From a virus (lineage: Duplodnaviria; Caudoviricetes), in the IMG/VR virus record IMGVR_UViG_3300029305_012082, positions 1 to 64,000 of that record: a stretch of DNA of 64,000 nt. One strand, 5' to 3'. Each line of letters begins with the position of its first letter. Position 1 is the first letter of the stretch. Positions 13,724 through 42,396 of the stretch are shown here, piece by piece. The translations under genes were made by a program, and so were the position numbers. The notes below the pieces were generated by a model that was given only the letters and a program-made list of their open reading frames with translations, searched no databases and had not been told where the DNA came from.

Positions 13724-13801
13724 TTGACTTTACTGATAGGTGTGCTACGATATAGTCACAAAAAGGATTACCGATCGGTAAGCGAAATTACCGAAAGGAA
13801 A
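13724..13801 (+). promoter_or_regulatory. Promoter of the accessory operon with repressor-type operators
   Basis: TTGACT-16-TACGAT; perfect TTACCGATCGGTAA at 13768-13781; variants at 13730 and 13788. Confidence 0.8.
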
Positions 13802-29325: not shown

Positions 29326-29342
29326 GATCGGGGGTGATCGAA

Positions 29343-30743
29343 TTGGCTATCGTCCTGAAACCCCAGAAGGGTCCTCAAGAACGATTTCTTTAGCTTGCCT
29401 CATCTGCAGATATTGTAATCTACGGCGGAGCTGCTGGTGGCGGCAAAACCTACGGACTGTTACTTACTCCCCTTCGTTATAAGAATGTTCGAGGTTTTGG
29501 CTTTACCGTCTTCCGTCAGAACTTCAATCAGATCTTTTCTGACGGTGGTCTTTGGGATACCTCATCCAATATGTATAGCAGCATAAAAGGTGCTATTCCC
29601 AAATTTTCGAGAGGCAAGTGGATATTTACCGATAAAGACGGCCGACAGATGTCCAAGGTCACTTTTGCCCATATAGAGAAAGAGGATTCTCTAAAAAAAT
29701 GGCAGGGCGCACAGTTGTGCGGAATAGGATTTGACGAGCTGACCCACTTTTCGGAGAAGACGTTTTTTTATATGCTGTCCCGAAATAGATCTACCTGTGG
29801 TGTCACACCATTTGTTAGAGCCACTTGCAATCCGGATGCAGACAGTTGGGTTGCGAAATTCATTGCATGGTGGATAGATCAGGATACCGGATATGCCATT
29901 CCCGAGCGGAGCGGTGTTATCCGGTATTTTATTCGCCGCAATGAGGAGATCTATTGGGCAGACACAAAAGAGGAATTGTGGGAGCAATTTGATCTCACAA
30001 CCCCAGAAGAAAAAGATGAACCTAAGTCATGTACCTTCATCAAATCAGAACTGACTGACAATCAGGAACTCCTTAGGGTGAATCCTGGTTATCTGGCGAA
30101 CCTGAAAGCTATGTCTGAGGTTGATCGAGAGAGACTTCTGCACGGTAACTGGAAGATCAAAGCCGCAAGCGGATTGTTTTTCAAACGGTCTCAGGTTGAG
30201 GTCATTGACGTTGTACCGAAAGACATCCAAGCCCTTTGCAGAGCATGGGATATTGCAGCGACAGCAGAAAAAGGAACAGGAGACCCCGACTACACATCTG
30301 GTGTTCTCATGGGTATCAGGAAAGACAAGACGGTTGTTGTTCTGGATGTTATCAACCAAAGAATAAAAGCGGCCGATGTCAAAAACCTCATATACAACAC
30401 AGCCGTATCCGATCGAGCAAAATACGGAAATAAATGTCGTGTTCGGCTTCCTCAAGATCCGGGTGCCGCAGGAAAGATCGTAGCATCTACCTATGTGAAA
30501 ATGCTTGCTGGCTTCTCTGCTAAAGCCGTCCCCGTTTCGGGCAGCAAGCAGCTTCGTGCAACACCATTTGCAGCTCATTGGCAAAGTGGAAACGTTCAGG
30601 TGTTGGCAGCATCTTGGAACGACGCTTACTTCACTCAGCTTGAATCGTTCCCTGAGTCGAAACACGACGATATGGTTGATGCAAGTGCGGATTCTTTCAA
30701 TGACTTAACATCGTCCAGCTTCAATGTAGGAAATCTACTGTAA
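29343..30743 (+). pseudogene. terL: Terminase large subunit with in-frame TAG at codon 17 (29391-29393)
   Basis: TTG start after GGGGTG; MAIVLKPQKGPQERFL*LASSADIVIYGGAAGGGKT in frame with FDELTHF, ATCNP, RAWD.A and HDDMVDA. Confidence 0.85.
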
Positions 30744-30814
30744 ATAAATGTACCGTTCGGCAGCCACCCGTTGGATGCTGAACTCAGAATTACCAGAAAG
30801 AGGTGGCAGGAGAT

Positions 30815-33800
30815 ATGGGTGCATCGAATAACCAATCAGATCGCATCAGAGCATATGCGAAGCTGATTGAGGCACAGACAGGAAGAGCTGTCAGACCATT
30901 TCGCAAGGATGGGTATGTAAATCTCCTTAACCGATATGGGACTGCCAAAGATTCGGCTGAACAGTACCGTTTTGTTGCCGAGCCGATGATACCCGATGAC
31001 ATGCTAACGATGCATTACGAGGGCAACGGCCTGTTTGCCAAGATCATAGACGCTCCCGCTGAAGAAGCCGTCAAACACGGATTCAAGCTGGCAGATATTT
31101 CAGACGAGCAAACCGAAGCGTTCTACCAAGAAGCTCTGGACGAGCTTGATTGGGAAGAAGTCTTTATGACTGGTATCAAGTGGGCAAGACTCTTCGGCGG
31201 TGCAATAGGCGTTATGCTTATCAATGACGGAGGAGCACTTGAAGATCCTCTGAATTGGAAGAACATCAAGTCAATTGATGACATTCGCATCTACGACAGA
31301 TCTGTTATCCAACCGGATTATCAGAGCATGTACACATATAACAGGGAAGACCCCTTCCGAACAAGAGGAAGCAGACTTGGAACTCCCGAAAGATACTTTG
31401 TCAGCAGTAAGTACGGAAACTTCGTCGTCCACGAGAGTCGCTGCCTGCTATTCCAGAACGGTATCCTCCCGGAAAACTGTACGAATTCGATCTATCAGTT
31501 TTGGGGAATTCCCGAATATGTTCGTCTCCATAGAGCGTTACGGGATGCCGAGATAGCCCATGGAACAGCCCCCAAGATGCTGGATAGATCCGTACAGGCT
31601 GTTTACAAAATGAAAGACCTTTCTGCTGAATTGGCAACCGAAGAAGGCGAAGGAAAGGTTCTTCGAAGACTGCAAACCATAGATATGGCTCGTGGTCTTC
31701 TGAACAGCATAACGATTGATAGCGAGGGCGAAGACTATGACTTCCGCACATTCCAGTTTAGCGGCGTGTCTGATGTCATAGATGCAACGTGTAATTTCTT
31801 GTCAGCACTCTCGAACATTCCTCAAACTATTTTGTTTGGAAGATCACCTGCAGGAATGAACGCAACTGGCGAAAGCGATCTGGAGAATTGGTATAACTTT
31901 GTTGACAGAATTCGTGCAAAGAACATCCGAAGCAACCTTCGTTACTTGCTTTCTGTAATCTTCCAAGCTGGTGTTTCGACTGGTGAAATTAACGAAGTTC
32001 CCAAGATCAAGATCGAATTCAATCCGCTGTGGTCTTTGAGCGATGTAGAACAAGCTGATCTCGACAACAAACGGGCAAACACCGAGTTGGTGAAGGCACA
32101 AACCGCACAAGCATACATCGACATGCAGGTCTACGATCCAAGCGAGATCAGAAAGAAGCTTGCCCAAGCAAATGACTTCGAAATCGATGATGTAATTAGC
32201 GAAGAGGATCTGGAAGAAGATTTCTTTGCTTCTTTGGAAGAAACGGCTGAACCTACAACTAGGTTGGCTGCAAACCCCGACGCTGTCCACGAGACAAAGA
32301 CAGCGGCTGAAGGTAGTACGCCTACGAATGCGCCGGCAGCAACGAAGCTTCCTCAGGATATGACGGCGCAGGAAATCGGAGAGGTAGCAAAGAACACCGA
32401 TGAAGATGATGCAGTGTGGAATCCTTTTGGCGTTGGCGTTCTTGTAATAAAGGATGGAAAAATTCTTACTGGAACGAGGCACAATGACTCCGGATATGGA
32501 CTCATCGGAGGCCCCGGTGGTCATGGAGAAGAAGGTGAAAGCCCTGAAGAGGCAGCTTTTCGTGAAACCGAGGAAGAATTCGGTATCAGCGCAAAAGAAC
32601 TGATCCCCATTGGATTAGGCCCTTTTGAACCCGAAAGTGGGCTGCAATCTCATCTTTTCATCTGCACAGAATATGACGGTGAACCCGACTGTGTTGATAT
32701 GGAGATGGTCAATCCCAAATTCCGCACCTTGGAAGAATTGGAACAGCTGGATGCGTCCCTGTTCCCACCGTTCAAGGACAGCTTAGAGATCCTGAAAAGG
32801 GAACTCTGTGGAAAACGGGATGACGGTGGCCCCGGCTCCGGTAACTGGGGACATGCTGGTAGACCCGGTAAAAAGGGTGGCTCTTCAGGAGGTGGCGGTG
32901 CACATAACCGCATGGGATCTTCTGAGGAAGGATATACTTCCTTCTCCAAGGAAAAAAAGAAGATGGCAAAGCCGCACAAGCTCTCTCACGAAGAACTTTC
33001 CAAGTGTCCCAATGGTACTGTCATCGCTGGCATGGCTGGTCACTACAAAAAAGCCAAGATTGAAGTTTGGAACAACGAGACGTTCGACTATGAATTTAAG
33101 GAAGGCTTCGTCAGCGATGACTGGGGAGATTTCCTTGAAATCGATCAGGTAATTTCTGCTGCCGGTAACGATTCCTATGGTCTCGCAATTCCCGACAGCG
33201 CCAACAAGAACTACCTCAAACCGAAGGGAGATCCTTTCTCTGACGAACGGAGAACCAACGCATTCAAGGCATCTGAAGCTCGTGATGCTGATGACCTGCT
33301 CAGAGAGAAAAGTGGACATATTTGGCGAGGACTGGATGATGCATCCAAAGATGCCCTCGTTGGATACACGGGCGAAACATACTTTGATATAAACAGCGGC
33401 TTACGAAATGGCTATAATGTATCAGACAGCATCCGGAAAGACACGGAACTCTTGACAAATGCAATTTCTCAATCTGTTCTGGATAGAGACATGTATCTGT
33501 TCCGTGGCACTAGCAGCAGCGCGGCAGAGAAACTTTTCGGCTTAAAATCTGGCGATCTCGCTACTTGGAGCGGTCAGATCGAAGATCTGAGCACATTGGT
33601 CGGAACACGAGGTATCGACAACGGCTTTTTGTCCTGCGGAACGTCTGAAGGCAAAGGATTCACCAGCCGAGATGTCCAGTTGAAGATATACTGTCCTGCC
33701 GGAACACAGGCACTTTACGCCGAACCCTTCTCTGCATTCGGACGTGGCGATCAGCGAAGCTGGGATGGTATCAGCAAGCAGAATTCCTTCTCTTCTGAAA

Positions 33801-34438
33801 ACGAAACAATCCTTCAAAGAGGATGTGAGCTGCGTATTGTTGGTGCGGAATGGTCTGGAAACAAGGCTATTCTGGAAGTTGAAGTGCTATCCCAGATGAA
33901 TAATACCATCAAATCAGATGGAGATGACCTAGATGGCTTCTCAAAATCATCGAATCCTGATAATCTCGAAAAACATCTTGACTTTTACGGTCAATCAGCT
34001 ACGATAAAGTCACAAGATAACTTCGATGGCGGCTCCGGCTCCGGAAACCATGGACACAGAGGTGTTAAGGGTCAACGGGGAGGATCTGCAGCAAAGTCCT
34101 CCCATCCCAAAGTCACAAAGTTCACAACCCAGAATGGGAGAATGAAGATTACTTCAGATCTTAAAGTCAAAGCGAGTAAATCTGGGAAAGTATCTGTTAC
34201 GATAAAAGCGGGACAGGAAATCGAAGGGATTTATTCTTTTGCTGGGAAGGGGTCGAATGCAAATCTTGTGGTATCCGGCACACTGTCCAAACAATATGGA
34301 GGCAAACCGAAAGACTGGTCCCACTTGTGTGGTTATGCAACCGTTGTCAATTCAAACGGAAGCCAAGAACGGGCGGAGATCCACTGGTTTGAGCATGAAA
34401 CGGTAGGCCAGATAAATTTCAAAGTTAAAAAAAGGTAG
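30815..34438 (+). CDS. Portal protein (DUF1073-like) fused to Nudix hydrolase, ADP-ribosyltransferase and a C-terminal putative toxin domain
   Basis: Portal motifs RLFGG and IPQTILFGRSPAGMNATGESD; Nudix box GHGEEGESPEEAAFRETEEEFG; ART motifs Y...IN..LR, LFRG, GFLS, ENE; C-terminal AEIHWFE. Confidence 0.85.
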   Translation: MGASNNQSDRIRAYAKLIEAQTGRAVRPFRKDGYVNLLNRYGTAKDSAEQYRFVAEPMIPDDMLTMHYEGNGLFAKIIDAPAEEAVKHGFKLADISDEQTEAFYQEALDELDWEEVFMTGIKWARLFGGAIGVMLINDGGALEDPLNWKNIKSIDDIRIYDRSVIQPDYQSMYTYNREDPFRTRGSRLGTPERYFVSSKYGNFVVHESRCLLFQNGILPENCTNSIYQFWGIPEYVRLHRALRDAEIAHGTAPKMLDRSVQAVYKMKDLSAELATEEGEGKVLRRLQTIDMARGLLNSITIDSEGEDYDFRTFQFSGVSDVIDATCNFLSALSNIPQTILFGRSPAGMNATGESDLENWYNFVDRIRAKNIRSNLRYLLSVIFQAGVSTGEINEVPKIKIEFNPLWSLSDVEQADLDNKRANTELVKAQTAQAYIDMQVYDPSEIRKKLAQANDFEIDDVISEEDLEEDFFASLEETAEPTTRLAANPDAVHETKTAAEGSTPTNAPAATKLPQDMTAQEIGEVAKNTDEDDAVWNPFGVGVLVIKDGKILTGTRHNDSGYGLIGGPGGHGEEGESPEEAAFRETEEEFGISAKELIPIGLGPFEPESGLQSHLFICTEYDGEPDCVDMEMVNPKFRTLEELEQLDASLFPPFKDSLEILKRELCGKRDDGGPGSGNWGHAGRPGKKGGSSGGGGAHNRMGSSEEGYTSFSKEKKKMAKPHKLSHEELSKCPNGTVIAGMAGHYKKAKIEVWNNETFDYEFKEGFVSDDWGDFLEIDQVISAAGNDSYGLAIPDSANKNYLKPKGDPFSDERRTNAFKASEARDADDLLREKSGHIWRGLDDASKDALVGYTGETYFDINSGLRNGYNVSDSIRKDTELLTNAISQSVLDRDMYLFRGTSSSAAEKLFGLKSGDLATWSGQIEDLSTLVGTRGIDNGFLSCGTSEGKGFTSRDVQLKIYCPAGTQALYAEPFSAFGRGDQRSWDGISKQNSFSSENETILQRGCELRIVGAEWSGNKAILEVEVLSQMNNTIKSDGDDLDGFSKSSNPDNLEKHLDFYGQSATIKSQDNFDGGSGSGNHGHRGVKGQRGGSAAKSSHPKVTKFTTQNGRMKITSDLKVKASKSGKVSVTIKAGQEIEGIYSFAGKGSNANLVVSGTLSKQYGGKPKDWSHLCGYATVVNSNGSQERAEIHWFEHETVGQINFKVKKR
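33978..34005 (+). promoter_or_regulatory. Internal promoter TTGACT-16-TACGAT inside the portal fusion gene
   Basis: Exact family match, followed by AAAGTCA as at 34649. Confidence 0.65.
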
Positions 34439-34447
34439 GGGATTTCG

Positions 34448-34606
34448 ATGACAGGAATTTGGAGAGGCGATACTGATCCTCTGGAGCTTATCCATGGGAA
34501 AGAGTACGAAATTATCGGAGAAGGTTTCGACGGTACATTTTTCGAAGTGGTTGACGAAACGGGGGAGGCATTCTTGTATCCTGCGGAAGATTTCGAAATC
34601 GTTTAA
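34448..34606 (+). CDS. 52-aa putative immunity/antitoxin protein (not in ORF track)
   Basis: MTGIWRGDTDPLELIHGKEYEII...VVDETGEAFLYPAEDFEIV directly after the toxin domain, with AGGGG RBS. Confidence 0.7.
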   Translation: MTGIWRGDTDPLELIHGKEYEIIGEGFDGTFFEVVDETGEAFLYPAEDFEIV

Positions 34607-34648: not shown

Positions 34649-34676
34649 TTGACTAGGTCGGTAGGTAAGTTACGAT
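34649..34676 (+). promoter_or_regulatory. Promoter TTGACT-16-TACGAT
   Basis: Spacer nearly identical to that at 17519. Confidence 0.72.
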
Positions 34677-34714: not shown

Positions 34715-34945
34715 ATGGCAAGATGGGACAATGAAGAGTTTGCGCTCCAGCGCCCTGATGAAAACCGGATTATCTGCAAGGATTGTGTGTTTAGAGAAAA
34801 AGATCGTCAGTTTGGCAAGAGTGTTATCTGCGGATGCACACTTGACATCTGTCAAGTTTATTCGAACAGCAATCCGAAGCCGCACGATATTCTTTTCAAG
34901 AACAAACCCTGTGGGTATTATGTGAGCGAGAATGATGAAGACTAA
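34715..34945 (+). CDS. Small Cys-rich protein
   Basis: CKDC...C...KP...C.YY; AGGAGG RBS. Confidence 0.7.
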   Translation: MARWDNEEFALQRPDENRIICKDCVFREKDRQFGKSVICGCTLDICQVYSNSNPKPHDILFKNKPCGYYVSENDED

Positions 34946-34975: not shown

Positions 34976-35767
34976 ATGATTGGTGCAATTGTAGGAGATA
35001 TTGTAGGCTCCATTTATGAATTCGATAATCACAGAGGCAAGGAGTTTCCTTTGTTCGGAAAAGGATGCTTCGCAACAGATGACAGCATTATGACTTTGGC
35101 GATTGCCAAGGCGGTTATGCTCAGTAAGCCGGATCACAGTGATCTTGGCAGAAATGCCGTCAAGCACATGCGAGAAGTTGGTCAGCCGTACCCATCTTGC
35201 GGGTATGGAGGCCGGTTTTTTCAGTGGATGTACAGCGACAATCCAGCCCCGTACAACAGCTTCGGAAACGGGGCCGCCATGAGAGTTAGTCCTGTTGCAT
35301 ACGAAGCGAAGTCGTTGGAAGATGTGAAGCTGATGTCTCGGCTTGTGACTGAGGTAACTCACAATCATCCCGAAGGGATTAAAGGCGCAGAGGCTGTAGC
35401 GGTGGCCACATGGCTTGCGCTTCATGATTTCGATAAAAGCGAAATCGATCATTATATCCGGGAGAACTACTATCCGATGGATTTCACGATTGATGAGATC
35501 CGTCCGACATATCGGTTCAATGAAACCTGTCAGGATACTGTCCCCCAAGCGATCAAGGCATTTTTGGAGTCCGAAAACTTCGAGGATGCGATCCGGATTG
35601 CGATTTCTGTTGGCGGTGACAGCGACACTTTAGCGTCTATTACTGGAGCAATAGCCGGTGCGTACTACGGTGTGCCCTCGGCAATCAAAATTCAAGCAAA
35701 TCGGTATCTCGATGATCGGCTTTCTGTGATTTTAAGGGATTTTTGTTTGCGTTACGGCGCAGCATGA
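34976..35767 (+). CDS. ADP-ribosylglycohydrolase (DraG/ARH family)
   Basis: GAIVGD, TDD, GNGAAMR, THNHP, GGDSDT. Confidence 0.93.
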   Translation: MIGAIVGDIVGSIYEFDNHRGKEFPLFGKGCFATDDSIMTLAIAKAVMLSKPDHSDLGRNAVKHMREVGQPYPSCGYGGRFFQWMYSDNPAPYNSFGNGAAMRVSPVAYEAKSLEDVKLMSRLVTEVTHNHPEGIKGAEAVAVATWLALHDFDKSEIDHYIRENYYPMDFTIDEIRPTYRFNETCQDTVPQAIKAFLESENFEDAIRIAISVGGDSDTLASITGAIAGAYYGVPSAIKIQANRYLDDRLSVILRDFCLRYGAA

Positions 35768-35825: not shown

Positions 35826-35900
35826 GTCGTGGTAGATCAGAAGGTAGATCACCGGGAAGGCATAGCCCGACAGTCGCAGGTTCAAGTCCTGCCCACGGCA
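35826..35900 (+). tRNA. Atypical/pseudo tRNA (enlarged CAT-containing loop)
   Basis: Acceptor GTCGTGG/CCACGGC, D-stem GATC, T-arm GCAGG-TTCAAGT-CCTGC; irregular anticodon arm. Confidence 0.6.
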
Positions 35901-36003
35901 CAACTCCCGGAAGCGGGGCTATTTTCTACTCCTTTGTAACTTGACGGCTCGGAAAAGACGAGAAGTGCTGTGTAGCGTGGTTGAGCTACACAGTGCGCCT
36001 TAT

Positions 36004-36088
36004 GGGGCAGTGGCGAAATGAAAACGCTGGGGACGATTTCCTCTAGTGCTGTTGCACCTTGTTGGTTCAAATCCAACCTGCCCCACCA
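36004..36088 (+). tRNA. Atypical class II tRNA-like gene with a shortened anticodon loop
   Basis: GGGGCAG/CTGCCCC-ACCA, T-arm GTTGG-TTCAAAT-CCAAC, variable arm GTGC-TGTT-GCAC. Confidence 0.6.
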
Positions 36089-36188
36089 CCCACGAAAGTG
36101 GGATCTTCCTCTCTTTTTCTTGTTTTGACAGCTCGGAATAGACGGCAATGCCCTGTAGAATTCATTCGCCTCTGCAGGGCAAACATAC

Positions 36189-36264
36189 GCTGCTATAGCT
36201 CAGTCGGTAGAGCAGCTGATTTGTAATCAGCAGGTCGTCGGTTCGAGTCCGACTAGCAGCTCCA
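36189..36264 (+). tRNA. tRNA-Thr(TGT)
   Basis: Canonical cloverleaf, anticodon arm CTGA-TTTGTAA-TCAG, CCA end. Confidence 0.93.
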
Positions 36265-36367
36265 CTGTGGTGTGGTGAACCACAGAGGCTTTCATTTCTC
36301 ATTCTTCTGGCAGCTCGGAAAGACGAGCAGTGCTGGACGATCCTCCTATTCGCCCAGCACATCATAT

Positions 36368-36441
36368 GCCGCAGTAGTTCAATGGCAGAACACCAGCCTT
36401 CCAAGCTGGTTGCGCGGGTTCGATTCCCGTTTGCGGCTCCA
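36368..36441 (+). tRNA. tRNA-Gly(TCC)
   Basis: CCAGC-CTTCCAA-GCTGG anticodon arm, CCA end. Confidence 0.92.
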
Positions 36442-36666
36442 AATCCGAGGTGTACATGGGCCGTTGCCGACATAAGGCAGCGCAAGCCGGTTGCCGCGCT
36501 ACACGATAGGAGAAAACAGCTGGGTCGCTCCCATCCGACAGCCGGACGGAATACAGACCGATAGTACTGTGACACGACGGACAGCGACGCCGAACAGGCC
36601 AGAACGAGAGGCCGGCAGACACGCCGCCAGCTGACTTAGAGAGCAGAAAAGATGCGTGTCCGATAT

Positions 36667-36741
36667 AGGGGTGTCGCCAAGAGGAAAGGCACGGGACTTT
36701 GACTCCCGTATTCGCAGGTTCGATCCCTGCCATCCCTGCCA
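36667..36741 (+). tRNA. tRNA-Gln(TTG)
   Basis: CGGGA-CTTTGAC-TCCCG, CCA end. Confidence 0.92.
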
Positions 36742-36854
36742 AGGACATATATGTCCTTACCAAGAGCCGAAAACAACCTGCTTGCGCGACAACGACTGCG
36801 TACCACGCGGGAACAGTGTAAGCGGGTTCTTTCGGTAATTGCCAACATTGAAAT

Positions 36855-36942
36855 GGGAGCTTCGCCAAGCGGTGAAGGCATCGGTCTTGAAAACCGACAG
36901 GGCAGTAATGTCGCATGGGTTCGAATCCCTTAGCTCCCGCCA
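36855..36942 (+). tRNA. tRNA-Ser(TGA)
   Basis: TCGGT-CTTGAAA-ACCGA, long variable arm, GCCA end. Confidence 0.88.
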
Positions 36943-36967
36943 AAACCAACAGTGATGAAGATTTGAC

Positions 36968-37050
36968 CTCCGCATGAAGGAATGGTAGACTAACTTGTCT
37001 CAAAAACAAGTGCCATCGGCGTCCCGGTTCGAGTCCGGGTGCGGAGACCA
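36968..37050 (+). tRNA. tRNA-Leu(CAA), divergent
   Basis: CTTGT-CTCAAAA-ACAAG, variable arm, ACCA end. Confidence 0.8.
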
Positions 37051-37209
37051 GCCGGTATGCTTCATCTAGACATAGTGTTGGGCGACTGTGACCCGGACTC
37101 TCGGAGTCCTCCTTCCAAAGAAAATCGCAGTCTGATCTTAAAGTGAGGCCGCTTACCCTTGTGGTGGAAAAGTAGCGGGAAAGAACAGAGGCGGGGCTGT
37201 TCATTTCGT

Positions 37210-37286
37210 GGGCCTTTAGCTCAGCGGGTCAGAGCCTCCGGCTCATAACCGGATCGTCCACGGTTCGAATCCGTGAAGGCCCACCA
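37210..37286 (+). tRNA. tRNA with CAT anticodon (Ile2 or Met)
   Basis: TCCGG-CTCATAA-CCGGA; GGGCCTT acceptor resembles Ile2. Confidence 0.88.
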
Positions 37287-37695: not shown

Positions 37696-38634
37696 TTGAA
37701 CCATAACCAACACCAACAAGCTGTAAAAAAGGCGGTAAAAGCGAAATTCAGGGGTCACACGACCCTGCACAGCAAGCGAACCCCACTATATCCAGACACG
37801 GCAGAGCGGGAATATATGAGGATCACAGCTGGTTACGTCAGGTTGATGAATCAGGTGTTGAGAGAGAACCTGCCTGAAATAATGACCGAGTACAGAGCGC
37901 AACGAACAGATGGTGTCAGAAACGACGATCTTCGTGACTTGGAATCTTGGCTGAGACAAAAGTTCCGACAAATGGCGCAAGAACTTGAAAAACGGGTTTC
38001 TGTATTCGGGCTAGAGAGACTTGTGGACAAAGTATCCAGAATGACACAACGGATGTCCCTGAGGGAATGGAAAAAGTCGGTTAAAGACACCTTGGGAATT
38101 GATCTCATGGATGACTACTATAGCGGAGAATTCTACGAGTCGATAGTTCACAGGTGGGTGGATGAAAACGTTCTAAAAATCAAAACGCTCCCTCAGAACA
38201 CACTGGATGAGATGCAGCAAATTATACTGCATGGCTTTAAGTCTGGCTCGACGATCAGAGACATCACGAAAGAGATCCAACGTGAATATGGAGTAACCAG
38301 AAGACGGGCAAGAACTCTTGCCAGAGATCAAATTGCAACACTGAATTCGCAGATAACAAAAGCCCAGCAACAAGATGCCGGATGCAACAGATACAGATGG
38401 TCCGATTCCCGTGATTCTCGTGTCCGAGAATGCCACCACGCTTTGAACGGCAAGATCTTCAGCTGGGACGATCCTCCGGAGATGTGGTACACGACCAAGA
38501 AACGAGGAGTTGTTCGCACCGGAAGACGTTGTCATCCCGGCGAAGATTACTGCTGCAGATGCATTGCTATTCCAGTATTCGATTATGAGACACTTGATGT
38601 CCCTATAAAAGAAACAGTAAGTCCCAAGGGGTAA
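37696..38634 (+). CDS. Minor head protein (Mu gpF/SPP1 gp7 family)
   Basis: ARDQ, YRW..SRDSRVR..H, HPGEDYCCRC. Confidence 0.9.
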   Translation: MNHNQHQQAVKKAVKAKFRGHTTLHSKRTPLYPDTAEREYMRITAGYVRLMNQVLRENLPEIMTEYRAQRTDGVRNDDLRDLESWLRQKFRQMAQELEKRVSVFGLERLVDKVSRMTQRMSLREWKKSVKDTLGIDLMDDYYSGEFYESIVHRWVDENVLKIKTLPQNTLDEMQQIILHGFKSGSTIRDITKEIQREYGVTRRRARTLARDQIATLNSQITKAQQQDAGCNRYRWSDSRDSRVRECHHALNGKIFSWDDPPEMWYTTKKRGVVRTGRRCHPGEDYCCRCIAIPVFDYETLDVPIKETVSPKG

Positions 38635-38934: not shown

Positions 38935-39276
38935 ATGAGAAACTACAGAGCAGTCGAAGATGTCAGCAGACATCTTTCGAAGATTTGCGAAAGCATTCAG
39001 AATTTGGCTTGCTCCATTGAGATGTACCAGCACATGGATGGTGATCTGGAAGCAACTTATGAAACTCTCATGCTCGACAAGCTTGAACATCTGCAGATGC
39101 TCACCTTGAAACTGACCGAACTGATTACTTCGGCAGAGGAGAGATCTGACAGTCAGGAGAACTTGGACGAAGGCGGCGGTGCTTTCTTTGCCGGCGAACT
39201 AGACGATGTCAAGAGAGATGAAGCGGCTGATGACAGAGATCCCACTTCCGTTAAAGCTGCGACAGCTGCAGAATAA
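38935..39276 (+). CDS. Hypothetical head-region protein
   Basis: AAGGAG RBS. Confidence 0.7.
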   Translation: MRNYRAVEDVSRHLSKICESIQNLACSIEMYQHMDGDLEATYETLMLDKLEHLQMLTLKLTELITSAEERSDSQENLDEGGGAFFAGELDDVKRDEAADDRDPTSVKAATAAE

Positions 39277-39304
39277 TCACCATTCTCCGAAAGGAGGGGA
39301 GCGC

Positions 39305-40837
39305 ATGCCCCCTAGCTTAGCAAAGGTGATTCGTCTGGACAATTTGCCATTGAACCAGACTTATTTCACCTCTGAAGGATATCTCGTAGACCGTCCTATT
39401 CTTACAACAACGGGTATATTCGAGTATCACAATGCTGACGGAAGCGTCAGAAGGGAGCTTCGACTCCCAGATGAAGTCTTTTCTGCTGAAAGCCTGAAGT
39501 CGTACAAGGGTCATCCGATTATCATAACCCATGATGCAGGTGAAGTTGACAAAAACAATGTCACCTCCCACCAGATCGGAACCATCCTTACAGAAGGATA
39601 TCGCAGTGGAGACGATGTCAGAGCTGAGATCATCATCCATGATACGGATAAGATGAAAGCAGCAGGACTCAAAGAACTTTCTCTTGGCTATCATGTCGAC
39701 CTAGACGAAACGCCCGGAGAATGGAATGGACAGCGATATGATGCCATTCAAAGAAACATTAGAATCAATCACCTCGCTTTGGTAAGAAACGCCAGAGCAG
39801 GTGAGCAGGCACGTCTGAACATTGACAGCCGTGATCCTGTCAGAAAACTACAAGGAGGAAAAGCAATGGCTAATCCCAAGCAAACTGAGACCAAGCCCAC
39901 TCAGCATGCCGACGGTCTCTTGACTTCAGAGCAGCTGGCTCAGGCAATTTCTGAGTACAAGGCTCGACGCAGTCAACAGCCTGTGCAGGACGAAGACCCC
40001 GTGCCTGCAGAAGAAACTGTCGTTGAAACCGCCGAGGAAACTGTTGTGGACGAAAACGCTGTTAGCGATGTCGAACAAAACGTTCTCACCACAGATGAAA
40101 AGATCTCTGCGATTAAGGAACGACAGGTGGCACGAGCCGGCGGAGAAGGTCCTTCTGATCTTGATGCCGCAAAGAGCGTTATTCTTCAGCAGGATGAGGA
40201 TCTGGCAACTCTGGTTGGTATCATCGATCAGATGAAGGCTGCTGAAGACTACAAGAACGCAAAGAATGATGCCGAGGACGATCAAAAGGACGAAGAAGTC
40301 CTGCCCGAGGACGACGTCAAAAATGATGAACAAGAGCCTGCCACTCCCGAAGAAACTGAAACGCACGAGGATCAAACTGATGTAGAAGATCCTGACGATC
40401 AGGATGATAAGAAGGATGGTGCTGGGTGCAATGAAGACTCTGCCGAAAGTGAGCCGACTACAGAACCTGCAGCCGAAGATGATAAGACCACCCTGAACGA
40501 AGATTCCATCGATGCAATCGTTACTCAGCGAGTGACCCTTGGCATTATGGGCCGCCAGCTGAATTTGGACGGCCTTGAGCACATGCCTGTTCTGGATGCA
40601 AAGAAGGCTATTATCTCCGCTGTCCGTCCCGGCATGCGGCTCGATGGCAAGAGTGAAGATTACATTGCTGCGGCGTTTGACCTTGCAGCTGCTGAAATCG
40701 AAGCTCAAAGTGAAAAGGACACCGCTTATCAAAAGCGACAGATGTTCAACAAGGACTCTGGTGCCGCAGAAGAAGCCGGCACCTCTGCTGCTGACGCTCG
40801 TCAGAGAATGATCGACCGTCAGACCAATAAGATTTAA
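39305..40837 (+). CDS. DUF2213-family prohead protease/scaffold
   Basis: EGYL...TGIFEY, ELSLGY, QRNIRINHLALV..ARAG; acidic scaffold-like C-terminus. Confidence 0.85.
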   Translation: MPPSLAKVIRLDNLPLNQTYFTSEGYLVDRPILTTTGIFEYHNADGSVRRELRLPDEVFSAESLKSYKGHPIIITHDAGEVDKNNVTSHQIGTILTEGYRSGDDVRAEIIIHDTDKMKAAGLKELSLGYHVDLDETPGEWNGQRYDAIQRNIRINHLALVRNARAGEQARLNIDSRDPVRKLQGGKAMANPKQTETKPTQHADGLLTSEQLAQAISEYKARRSQQPVQDEDPVPAEETVVETAEETVVDENAVSDVEQNVLTTDEKISAIKERQVARAGGEGPSDLDAAKSVILQQDEDLATLVGIIDQMKAAEDYKNAKNDAEDDQKDEEVLPEDDVKNDEQEPATPEETETHEDQTDVEDPDDQDDKKDGAGCNEDSAESEPTTEPAAEDDKTTLNEDSIDAIVTQRVTLGIMGRQLNLDGLEHMPVLDAKKAIISAVRPGMRLDGKSEDYIAAAFDLAAAEIEAQSEKDTAYQKRQMFNKDSGAAEEAGTSAADARQRMIDRQTNKI

Positions 40838-40851
40838 GGAGGAATTCCATT

Positions 40852-41346
40852 ATGAGCGCACAAACCAGATACGGATTCACTACTCCCATTGGCGTCGCAG
40901 GTGGCATTTATGATCTCGCCCCCTACGAAATCAACACATTCCTGAACGAAGAAGAAACCGGCGTTATGAGCTTTGGCGTTGGCGTTGTGAAGGGCACCGC
41001 TCCCGGTGCAAACGTCAAGCTGCCTGCGGAAGGTGCAACTGCTGCTGATTTCGAAGGCATTACCGTCAACAACCGCACAACCGAGTACGGACTGGACGAC
41101 AAGGTCCGTGTTCGCAAGGGTGCCTCTATGGGCGTCATGCGCTATGGTCGTATTTACGGCCGTGTCGCAGCTGATGTTGAACCTGAATACGGCGAAGCCG
41201 TTTACATGGTTGCATCCGGCGAAGAAGCAGGTTTCTTCACCAATGTTGCTTCCGGCAATGTTGCGATCAAGGCACGTTTCGGCGGCAGTGTTGATCCCAT
41301 CCATAAGGTCGCACTGATTGAACTGTTCAATCAAGCACAGGCGTAA
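40852..41346 (+). CDS. Head decoration/cement protein
   Basis: Position before the major capsid gene; FGVGVV, VMRYGRIY. Confidence 0.7.
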   Translation: MSAQTRYGFTTPIGVAGGIYDLAPYEINTFLNEEETGVMSFGVGVVKGTAPGANVKLPAEGATAADFEGITVNNRTTEYGLDDKVRVRKGASMGVMRYGRIYGRVAADVEPEYGEAVYMVASGEEAGFFTNVASGNVAIKARFGGSVDPIHKVALIELFNQAQA

Positions 41347-41358
41347 GCAAGGAGGTAA

Positions 41359-42396
41359 ATGAATATGAGCACTCATACCAACTACAACCCTTCTGAAATG
41401 AAGGCTCTGCAGAATTCTGCTATCCCCACCGCCATCATGGCTTCTCCCGGCACAAGATTTGACAGCGCAGAACAGGCATCTGTTTTCTTTGCACAGGAAC
41501 TGGATCACGTCAAGGCTCAGTCCTACGACGTGGAATATCCTGAACTGACAGCTCTGAGCCTGTTCCCCGTCAGCTCTGAAGTTGACCCCGGCGCTGAGAC
41601 CGTTACTTATCATACCTACGATAAGACCGGCCTCGCAAAGGTCATCGACAACTATTCCACCGATCTGCCCCGTGCAGACGTGAACGGCAAGCCCGTCCAT
41701 GCAATCATCAAGTCCGTCGGCGACTCCTATGGTTACTCCGCACAGGAAATGAGAGCATCCAGACTGGCTGGCAAGTCCCTGGACTCCAGAAAGGCCGAAT
41801 CTGCACGTTTCCAGATCGACAACATTCTGAACAAGATCGCATGGGCCGGCGATGCAGAGTCCGGCCTGATGGGCGTTCTGTCCGAAGGTCAGAATATTCC
41901 TCTGTTCGCCATCGGCGCTGGTGCAAGCGGTGCTACCTCTTGGCTGGAAAAGACCGCAGATGAAATTCTGGCCGATGTTGCCGGTATGCAGAAGCAGGTC
42001 GCAAAGATGACAAAGAACGTTGAGCGTCCTGATACCCTTTGCCTGCCCTCCGATGTCTATCTGCATCTGAGCACTACCAGAATCCCCGACACTACCACCA
42101 CCGTGCTGTCCTTCATCAAGGAACATGCTCCCTATATCAAGAACATCGTTTCTGCCGCCGAGCTGGACAGCGACAGCACCTTCACCAATCCCTATGCTGC
42201 TGAAGAAGACGGTCAGGGCGTTGCATTCCTGTTCAAGAACGACAAGCGCAAGCTGTCTCTGGAAAATCCCATGCCCTTCTATCAGTATCCTCTGCAGGTC
42301 AGAAATCTGGAAACCATCATTCCTTGCGAGGCACGAACTGCCGGCGTCATTGTGTACTATCCCATGTCCGCTCTGATTGCCGTTGGCGTGTCCTGA
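41359..42396 (+). CDS. Major capsid protein (DUF2184/HK97 fold)
   Basis: DLPRAD, SYGYS.QE, IAWAGD...GLMG, RTAGV..YYP. Confidence 0.88.
   Translation: MNMSTHTNYNPSEMKALQNSAIPTAIMASPGTRFDSAEQASVFFAQELDHVKAQSYDVEYPELTALSLFPVSSEVDPGAETVTYHTYDKTGLAKVIDNYSTDLPRADVNGKPVHAIIKSVGDSYGYSAQEMRASRLAGKSLDSRKAESARFQIDNILNKIAWAGDAESGLMGVLSEGQNIPLFAIGAGASGATSWLEKTADEILADVAGMQKQVAKMTKNVERPDTLCLPSDVYLHLSTTRIPDTTTTVLSFIKEHAPYIKNIVSAAELDSDSTFTNPYAAEEDGQGVAFLFKNDKRKLSLENPMPFYQYPLQVRNLETIIPCEARTAGVIVYYPMSALIAVGVS

Follow-up and report, generated by a model that had tools for sequence, protein, structure and literature searches.

The window analysed here is the first 64 kb (64,000 nucleotides) of the IMG/VR record IMGVR_UViG_3300029305_012082, a 104,687-bp provirus with a CheckV completeness of 100%. 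It encodes a portal polyprotein of 1207 aa (30815–34438) in which a Phage_portal_3 domain is followed by a Nudix hydrolase domain, a 21-residue Gly/His-rich tag, a C3-like ADP-ribosyltransferase (ART), a second copy of the tag and a 117-aa C-terminal domain (CTD). We consider it probable that, in this temperate gut phage with a contractile tail, the portal gene has been extended into a polymorphic effector polyprotein, the cargo of which would be encapsidated, with the tag serving as an address or release signal, the enzymes being injected and the products of partner genes being protective. The features described below between 30815 and 40837 lie on the plus strand.

Architecture of the portal polyprotein

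The open reading frame (ORF) starts with an ATG at 30815, preceded by a Shine-Dalgarno-like sequence (gaaagaggtgg), and runs without an internal stop to a TAG codon at 34436–34438; an alternative GTG start is present at 30803. The Phage_portal_3 domain (PF06381) occupies residues 67–422 (31013–32080; Pfam 4e-72), scoring 243 bits against a cut-off of 33.8 and covering profile positions 6–353 of 357, and a PHROG portal match extends over residues 17–723. In the acidic linker that leads to the Nudix domain, the motif APAATKLPQDM (32330–32362) was observed. Its core (A[TS]K[LMIV]PxD) is kept in 112 of 121 homologues and is found only in portals; it could represent a second processing site or a piece of the portal crown. 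The Nudix domain (residues 538–642, 32426–32740) matches PF00293 at 4e-12 (46.8 bits, cut-off 21.1) and contains the complete Nudix box (GX5EX7REUXEEXGU) at residues 569–590 (32519–32584). Its nearest solved relatives are of the MTH1/MutT type, at an E-value of only 1.5e-8.

Downstream of the Nudix domain, tag 1 (DGGPGSGNWGHAGRPGKKGGS, residues 670–690, 32822–32884) precedes the ART cargo module (32885–33904), and tag 2 (DGGSGSGNHGHRGVKGQRGGS, residues 1071–1091, 34025–34087) precedes the CTD (34088–34435). The original prediction, made from the sequence alone, had described a portal continuing into a Nudix box, an R-S-E type ART and a second toxin-like domain. The uninterrupted ORF, the Pfam matches, the Nudix box and the catalytic residues bear out this layout, the positions given were accurate within about 15 nt, and the C-terminal end is as quoted. 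With Nudix, ART and CTD on one chain adjoining TerL, the protein also shows the multi-domain organisation of polyvalent proteins.

A constant core followed by variable cargo

A portal-seeded search, in which 8,000 candidates were scored, returned 5,735 proteins of 663–2113 aa. Among the relatives listed, all 120 (681–2060 aa) combine PF06381 with PF00293, and their extra Pfam domains vary, including ART, Ntox50, Gln_amidase, DUF7211 and phosphoribosyltransferase. One relative (P0002) shows the same portal, Nudix and ART order, with 59% identity over 85% of the length. The ART module (residues 694–1030) and the last 117 residues recur in other relatives in other combinations and orders; one layout reads portal-tag-ART-Nudix-tag-ART. 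The nearest cultured phage is Faecalibacterium phage FP_Brigit, with 54% identity across portal and Nudix, and its portal (L001 8923–11409, 828 aa) carries the Nudix domain and a different C-terminal domain of approximately 130 aa. The comparison of C-terminal cargo among portal homologues, suggested in the original prediction, revealed variable cargo. The portal and Nudix core is constant across thousands of relatives, and the parts after the core are swappable modules.

These relatives also bear on whether the fusion arose through misassembly or through decay of a prophage gene. Such an origin might be considered for a metagenome-derived provirus in which the neighbouring TerL gene contains an in-frame TAG. 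However, the 3.6-kb ORF has no stop, its catalytic residues are intact, and the same order is found in many independent assemblies, P0002 being one example. Since more than 5,700 portal and Nudix relatives with variable cargo come from independent assemblies, the fusion is not an artefact, and we regard this explanation as scarcely credible.

Distribution and conservation of the tag

The tag has the consensus DGG-x-GSGN-[FWHY]-GH-x-G-[RV]-x-G-x-x-GGS. Among 121 portal homologues gathered by portal similarity alone, 105 contain it one to three times, always at module boundaries and far beyond chance. A DNA-pattern scan of IMG/VR identified at least 141 tag-bearing ORFs in at least 106 loci; tag positions 14–21 were omitted from the pattern and are conserved all the same. 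At least 77 of the proteins stand alone, consisting of a variable leader of 13–98 aa, the tag and then cargo, and they often occur three or four in tandem. Their cargo, among the ORFs listed, includes ART (17/68), Zeta toxin, DUF3626, PBECR3 and CdiA_C. The listed ORFs with an internal tag contain Phage_portal_3 in 41 of 56 cases, DUF2213 in 2 of 56 and MuF in none of 56. Phage_portal_3 was present in all 24 tag-bearing viral records tested, and DUF2213 in 22 of these 24, including 8/8 of the records that are at least 90% complete.

A 35-column profile of the tag gave 5,036 matches among 1.84 billion representative proteins (E <= 1e-3), and a single protein may hold as many as 10 copies. Three polyproteins of 2,000–2,600 aa (P0122, P0141 and P0123) carry 9–10 tags spaced 150–300 residues apart, and multi-tag proteins contain ART-PolyVal, ART and Zeta toxin domains. 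A sister variant of the tag (RGGPGSGHFGHEGRPGEVGGS) is used throughout some of the multi-tag polyproteins. The tag is predicted to be disordered in AlphaFold2 (AF2) models, with a predicted local distance difference test (pLDDT) value below 50 for tag 2. The tag was not seen in the MuF carriers examined, its letter strings had no match in a literature search, and no Pfam or NCBIfam model for it was found. In another phage (L061, 1296–3179, +), two tags, each preceded by the same 13 residues, flank a module of 80 aa; a DUF2213 domain lies before the first tag, and a coiled-coil region resembling a scaffold comes after the second.

The Gly/His motif had been proposed to act as a packaging tag or as a recombination junction for swappable modules. 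Its role as a module-boundary element holds, and it also heads stand-alone cargo. As a recombination junction, the motif would mainly be conserved DNA that lets toxin cassettes swap, as proposed for the VENN or DPxGL boundaries of other polymorphic toxins, and the shuffling of modules among relatives with the motif at every boundary is consistent with this. On the other hand, the codons found at every conserved tag residue cover the full synonymous set, with both Ser families represented. This full mixing points to selection on the tag peptide and not on DNA, so a packaging or release tag is favoured. The tag variant is also tied to the module that follows it. The W-type tag precedes ART in 23 of 25 cases (20/203 otherwise), and the V-type tag precedes the CTD in 13 of 14 (60/214 otherwise); the sequences are related, so p-values for both comparisons are indicative only. 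This co-variation places the crossovers outside the tag, and the tag is found near the N-termini of stand-alone genes as well. A recombination junction as the main function is thus very improbable.

The ADP-ribosyltransferase module and its candidate immunity genes

The ART module comprises a conserved post-tag segment, a small beta domain and the C3-like catalytic domain. ADPrib_exo_Tox (PF03496) matches residues 838–1013 (9e-17, 61 bits), and a PHROG family labelled 'Bxa ADP-ribosyl transferase' matches residues 824–1034. In a 21-sequence alignment, R897, S940, E995 and E997 are invariant. The AF2 model (pLDDT 82) is similar to C3bot1 in Foldseek (E 8e-14, TM 0.79) and also matches by fold 8za7_B, the toxin of the Listeria ART–ARH pair (ARH, ADP-ribosylglycohydrolase). 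The catalytic Arg, the Ser of the STS motif, the ExE motif and the C3-like fold are those of R-S-E (C3/VIP2-type) ARTs. Profile and structure searches of the kind proposed in the original prediction thus agree, with Pfam matches for portal, Nudix and ART and a C3-like ART in Foldseek. With fold and catalytic residues intact in the model, the module is a predicted enzyme, and the ExE motif suggests arginine specificity by analogy with its family. The post-tag stretch (32885–33120) is common to ART modules and reads HNR ... TSFSKK ... AKPH, after which a small, confidently modelled beta domain precedes the catalytic domain.

Two candidate immunity genes for the ART were identified downstream. 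The first, orf76 (34715–34945), encodes a Cys-rich protein of 76 aa that may act by binding. The second (34976–35767; PF03747, 3e-37) encodes an ARH as a candidate for enzymatic immunity, and its sequence matches in the PDB are Lmo0067 (8za7_A), ARH3 and 6dre_A, together with the NCBIfam Tri1 model. When the IMG/VR tag loci were scanned with the proteins of the window as queries, an orf76 homologue was found in 12 of the at least 106 loci and an ARH in 7, every one of them ART-bearing; the order ART-orf76-ARH was read at one locus (L048). The ARH gene therefore both adjoins the ART and co-occurs with it, as is characteristic of ART–ARH pairs. These matched immunity-like genes had been missed in the original prediction, as had the prior literature on portal fusions with Nudix and ART.

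Copies of a promoter-like element were observed near these genes. The record contains 11 near-identical elements, all on the plus strand, composed of TTGACT/A, a 16–18-nt spacer and TACGAT; most copies read TGCTACGATA. They are located at 13724, 17519, 22772, 27027, 33978 and 34649 in the window and at 73919, 77945, 79065, 83209 and 89382 in the whole record. The copy at 34649–34676 lies upstream of orf76 and the ARH gene, so that transcription of the partner genes may not depend on the late operon. Another copy (33978–34005), identical to the former at 47/81 positions, lies inside the polyprotein ORF, within a low-confidence 40-residue linker (33905–34024). Because this extra linker is absent from other ART modules, the sequence suggests that the CTD-orf52 cassette, described below, was once a separate unit and was fused on later.

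The C-terminal domain and orf52

The CTD is a toxin-like, beta-rich domain of 117 aa with an AF2 pLDDT of about 95. Its most conserved stretch is AEIHWFE. Searches of Pfam (E up to 10), NCBIfam and PHROG gave no match, and no PDB match below E 0.001 was obtained with Foldseek (best VIA-align Z 4.2). The only leads from the protein atlas were SH3-like, at 0.85, and BFVD yielded only unnamed MuF-type relatives.

A scan with a CTD profile identified 46 further CTD loci, which form 16 clusters at 70% CTD identity. The CTD is the last element of its ORF in all 46 loci, and its carriers vary: the 10 that were scanned with Pfam comprise MuF1 (PF04233, 5), MuF2 (PF06152, 3), an LPD3 polyvalent protein (1) and a portal with Nudix (1). 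Directly downstream, within a few bases of the stop, an orf52-family gene is found in 45 of the 46 loci, the sole exception being a locus that ends 8 nt past the match. In the window, this candidate immunity partner is orf52 (34448–34606, 52 aa). Among the at least 106 tag loci, orf52 is present only in the 4 that bear the CTD. Since the 46 loci fall into 16 clusters, the pairing does not reflect one lineage counted repeatedly. By its sequence context, the combination of CTD and orf52 has the textbook signature of a polymorphic toxin with an immunity protein, orf52 being predicted to neutralise the CTD. The second toxin-like domain of the original prediction is thus upheld by its invariably terminal position, its presence on MuF1/MuF2 toxins elsewhere and the conserved small ORF behind it.

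The TAG of the polyprotein and the start of orf52 lie 9 nt apart in the same frame (34436–34450), and read-through would fuse both. This shared frame is probably a coincidence, because the two genes overlap in different frames at other loci.

Proposed loading, release and delivery of the cargo

In the mechanism that we propose, twelve copies of the cargo would be built into the capsid interior on the C-terminal side of the portal. The tag would then act at the protein level as an address, a release signal or both, which the head machinery of Phage_portal_3 and DUF2213 would recognise. Most likely, the DUF2213 protein, a candidate protease, would free the modules by cleavage. Once free, the enzymes would exit together with the DNA to act in the cell infected next, and orf52, orf76 and ARH would protect the producing cell, and possibly lysogens, by neutralising the toxins.

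The DUF2213 protein (39206–40837) has a scaffold-like tail and is a candidate prohead protease, carrying the PHROG label 'head maturation protease'. Its His109, Ser159 and His189, spaced 50 and 30 residues apart, are kept in at least 95% of 34 domains that share 26–81% identity. This His-Ser-His order and spacing are reminiscent of assemblin-type prohead proteases.

A combined address and release point is favoured by four observations. DUF2213 keeps the conserved His, Ser and His; portal-fused cargo retains the tag; chains of as many as ten enzymes are easiest to explain if the enzymes are eventually separated; and the tags at L061 part the DUF2213 domain from a scaffold-like region. It is plausible, though short of probable, that the tag works by itself as a portable signal of heads with Phage_portal_3 and DUF2213, and of these heads only, that both loads proteins into the prohead and marks the release cut.

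Several findings weigh against this interpretation or against the wider explanation. No tag precedes the Nudix domain, no third copy occurs in the whole 104.7-kb record, and the other head proteins have no tag. Since it is found nowhere else in the genome, the tag is not a general maturation site of a head protease, and its 21 invariant residues are longer than usual protease sites. No S78, ClpP or S49 protease, the classical prohead proteases, was found in the phage. The only solved relative of DUF2213 (9b40_G) was deposited as a scaffolding protein, at odds with the PHROG protease label. The tag was not found in the FP_Brigit portal, and no CTD was detected among the cultured phages of the collection searched. 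The CTD has no clear fold match.

The main rival explanation, which we judge rather unlikely, is that the tag is an uncleaved docking or oligomerisation element that fixes cargo to the portal, the scaffold or DNA, with fused cargo staying tethered or being released otherwise. The tag holds five G-X-Y triplets, a collagen-like or polyproline-II-like pattern, and it is a long, near-invariant sequence with a conserved aromatic residue, His, Arg/Val and Pro. Its strict co-occurrence with one portal family, its absence from the other head proteins of this genome and the lack of a classical protease also suit docking. However, a docking signal would be redundant on cargo already fused to the portal, where the tag is nevertheless kept at each cargo junction. 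The polyproteins with up to 10 tagged enzyme modules and the tag between the DUF2213 domain and the scaffold part at L061 likewise speak for separation, as under the address and release reading.

Two other functions of the tag were considered and rejected. Self-cleavage by Asn cyclisation at N-x-G-H, as in the NPTH of FlhB, does not serve as a general mechanism, as the Asn is replaced by His in a widespread variant of the tag. DNA binding by the GRPGK part in the manner of an AT-hook is weak as an explanation, since in many tags the Arg is replaced by Val or the neighbouring residues are acidic.

The enzymes might also not be injected at all, acting late in the producer or being released at lysis onto neighbours or the animal host, with the portal fusion only coupling expression to the late genes. 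According to PMC11699363, Bxa was first reported to be a fitness factor with an effect on epithelial cells; the candidate immunity genes would mean that the toxins endanger the cell that makes them; and the internal promoter copy lies just 5' of the CTD module. Against this, fusion to a 12-copy structural protein is conserved in thousands of phages, and the other carriers are all head-interior proteins (MuF, DUF2213/scaffold). Both points argue for encapsidation, and we consider it distinctly unlikely that delivery by the virion plays no part.

Comparison with known systems

The MuF polymorphic toxins of temperate phages and their downstream immunity genes are well established (Jamet et al. 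2017, PMC5576092; Bxa-BAH-Bsi, PMC11699363; Apk2). The present system shares with them a head-interior carrier, a variable C-terminal toxin with one or more immunity genes directly downstream, a temperate phage and a gut bacterial host; the downstream gene is conserved, and neutralisation is predicted. The CTD is itself the end domain of MuF1/MuF2 proteins elsewhere, and Bxa-BAH-Bsi comprises the same triad as here, namely an ART, an ADP-ribosyl hydrolase and a small binding protein. In contrast to the MuF toxins, the carrier here is the portal, with 12 copies per virion. The MuF minor head protein (37696–38634, 312 aa) consists of the MuF domain alone, without extension or cargo, in agreement with the earlier description of a short MuF gene with the cargo on the portal instead. 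The serial cargo modules, the constant Nudix domain and the 21-residue tag between modules are further differences.

Fusions of ART, Nudix, 2H, PBECR and InPase to MuF or portal proteins are read as head-packaged and injected in two surveys (Iyer et al. 2017, PMC5512222; Iyer et al. 2022, PMC9503650), so Nudix and ART portal fusions as such are already known. As in the polyvalent proteins, multi-enzyme proteins are encoded here among head genes, and the multi-tag relatives carry ART-PolyVal and Zeta toxin. A term search of PMC5512222 gave no match for 'glycine' or 'linker'. The passages of PMC9503650 that were examined mention neither a tag at module boundaries, nor immunity genes matched to cargo on portals, nor a pair like CTD and orf52. 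The Tre1-Tri1 (6dre) and Listeria Lmo0066-Lmo0067 (8za7) pairs likewise combine an arginine-type ART with an adjacent neutralising ARH, and both match the ARH of the window by sequence; unlike here, they are delivered by secretion systems and not by a phage portal. As far as searched, the tag, the size of the portal-Nudix family and its modular grammar, the immunity sets matched to portal cargo and the CTD/orf52 family are new.

Phage-delivered proteins decide the first minutes of infection. To our knowledge, almost nothing is known of how cargo is chosen and released outside T4, P22, N4 and the giant phages. In T4, the internal proteins and Alt bear a capsid-targeting sequence that is removed by the prohead protease gp21. 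Similarities to T4 include a short N-terminal cargo leader, prohead loading, an ART in the cargo and ejection with the DNA, the last steps being predicted here from the genes. The two systems differ in that T4 cargo is addressed by its leader and cut at a motif of 3 residues, whereas here an invariant 21-residue element is found behind variable leaders and inside fusions. In the present case, a very large uncultured family places cargo on the portal itself, one simple linear tag is common to fused and free cargo, and two candidate toxin/antidote sets are present, one of them a new family. If the tag does direct both loading and cutting, thousands of gut phages would share one common 'plug' with which to assemble exchangeable sets of injected enzymes, whether these are encoded by genes of their own or joined in series to the portal. 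A working tag would also offer a practical means of bringing proteins of choice into phage heads.

Gene neighbourhood

A large serine recombinase gene was identified at the left end of the record, which, with the classification as a provirus, indicates a temperate phage by gene content. TerL lies upstream of the portal polyprotein gene; downstream are orf52, orf76, the ARH gene, eight tRNA genes, the MuF gene and the DUF2213 gene, with the tail sheath gene further on. The tRNA array (35826–37286; Cys, Pro, Thr, Gly, Gln, Ser, Leu and Met) interrupts the block of head genes between the ARH and MuF genes.

TerL (29334–30743) occupies a single frame from a GTG at 29334 or a TTG at 29343 and contains an in-frame TAG at 29391–29393. 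This codon lies approximately 20 codons into the gene, just 5' of the Walker A motif (YGGAAGGGKT). General stop-codon recoding was rejected, as TAG terminates 20 normal genes and read-through gives no gain in coding density. The TAG may be a nonsense mutation, a sequencing error or a site of local read-through.

Further downstream, a minus-strand ORF of 430 aa (40834–42126) is in all likelihood a spurious antisense frame, as PHROG gave no match for it and the stretch is also covered by two plus-strand ORFs (164 and 345 aa). From their position and length relative to gp36 and gp37 of FP_Brigit, these two ORFs probably encode a virion protein and the major capsid protein.

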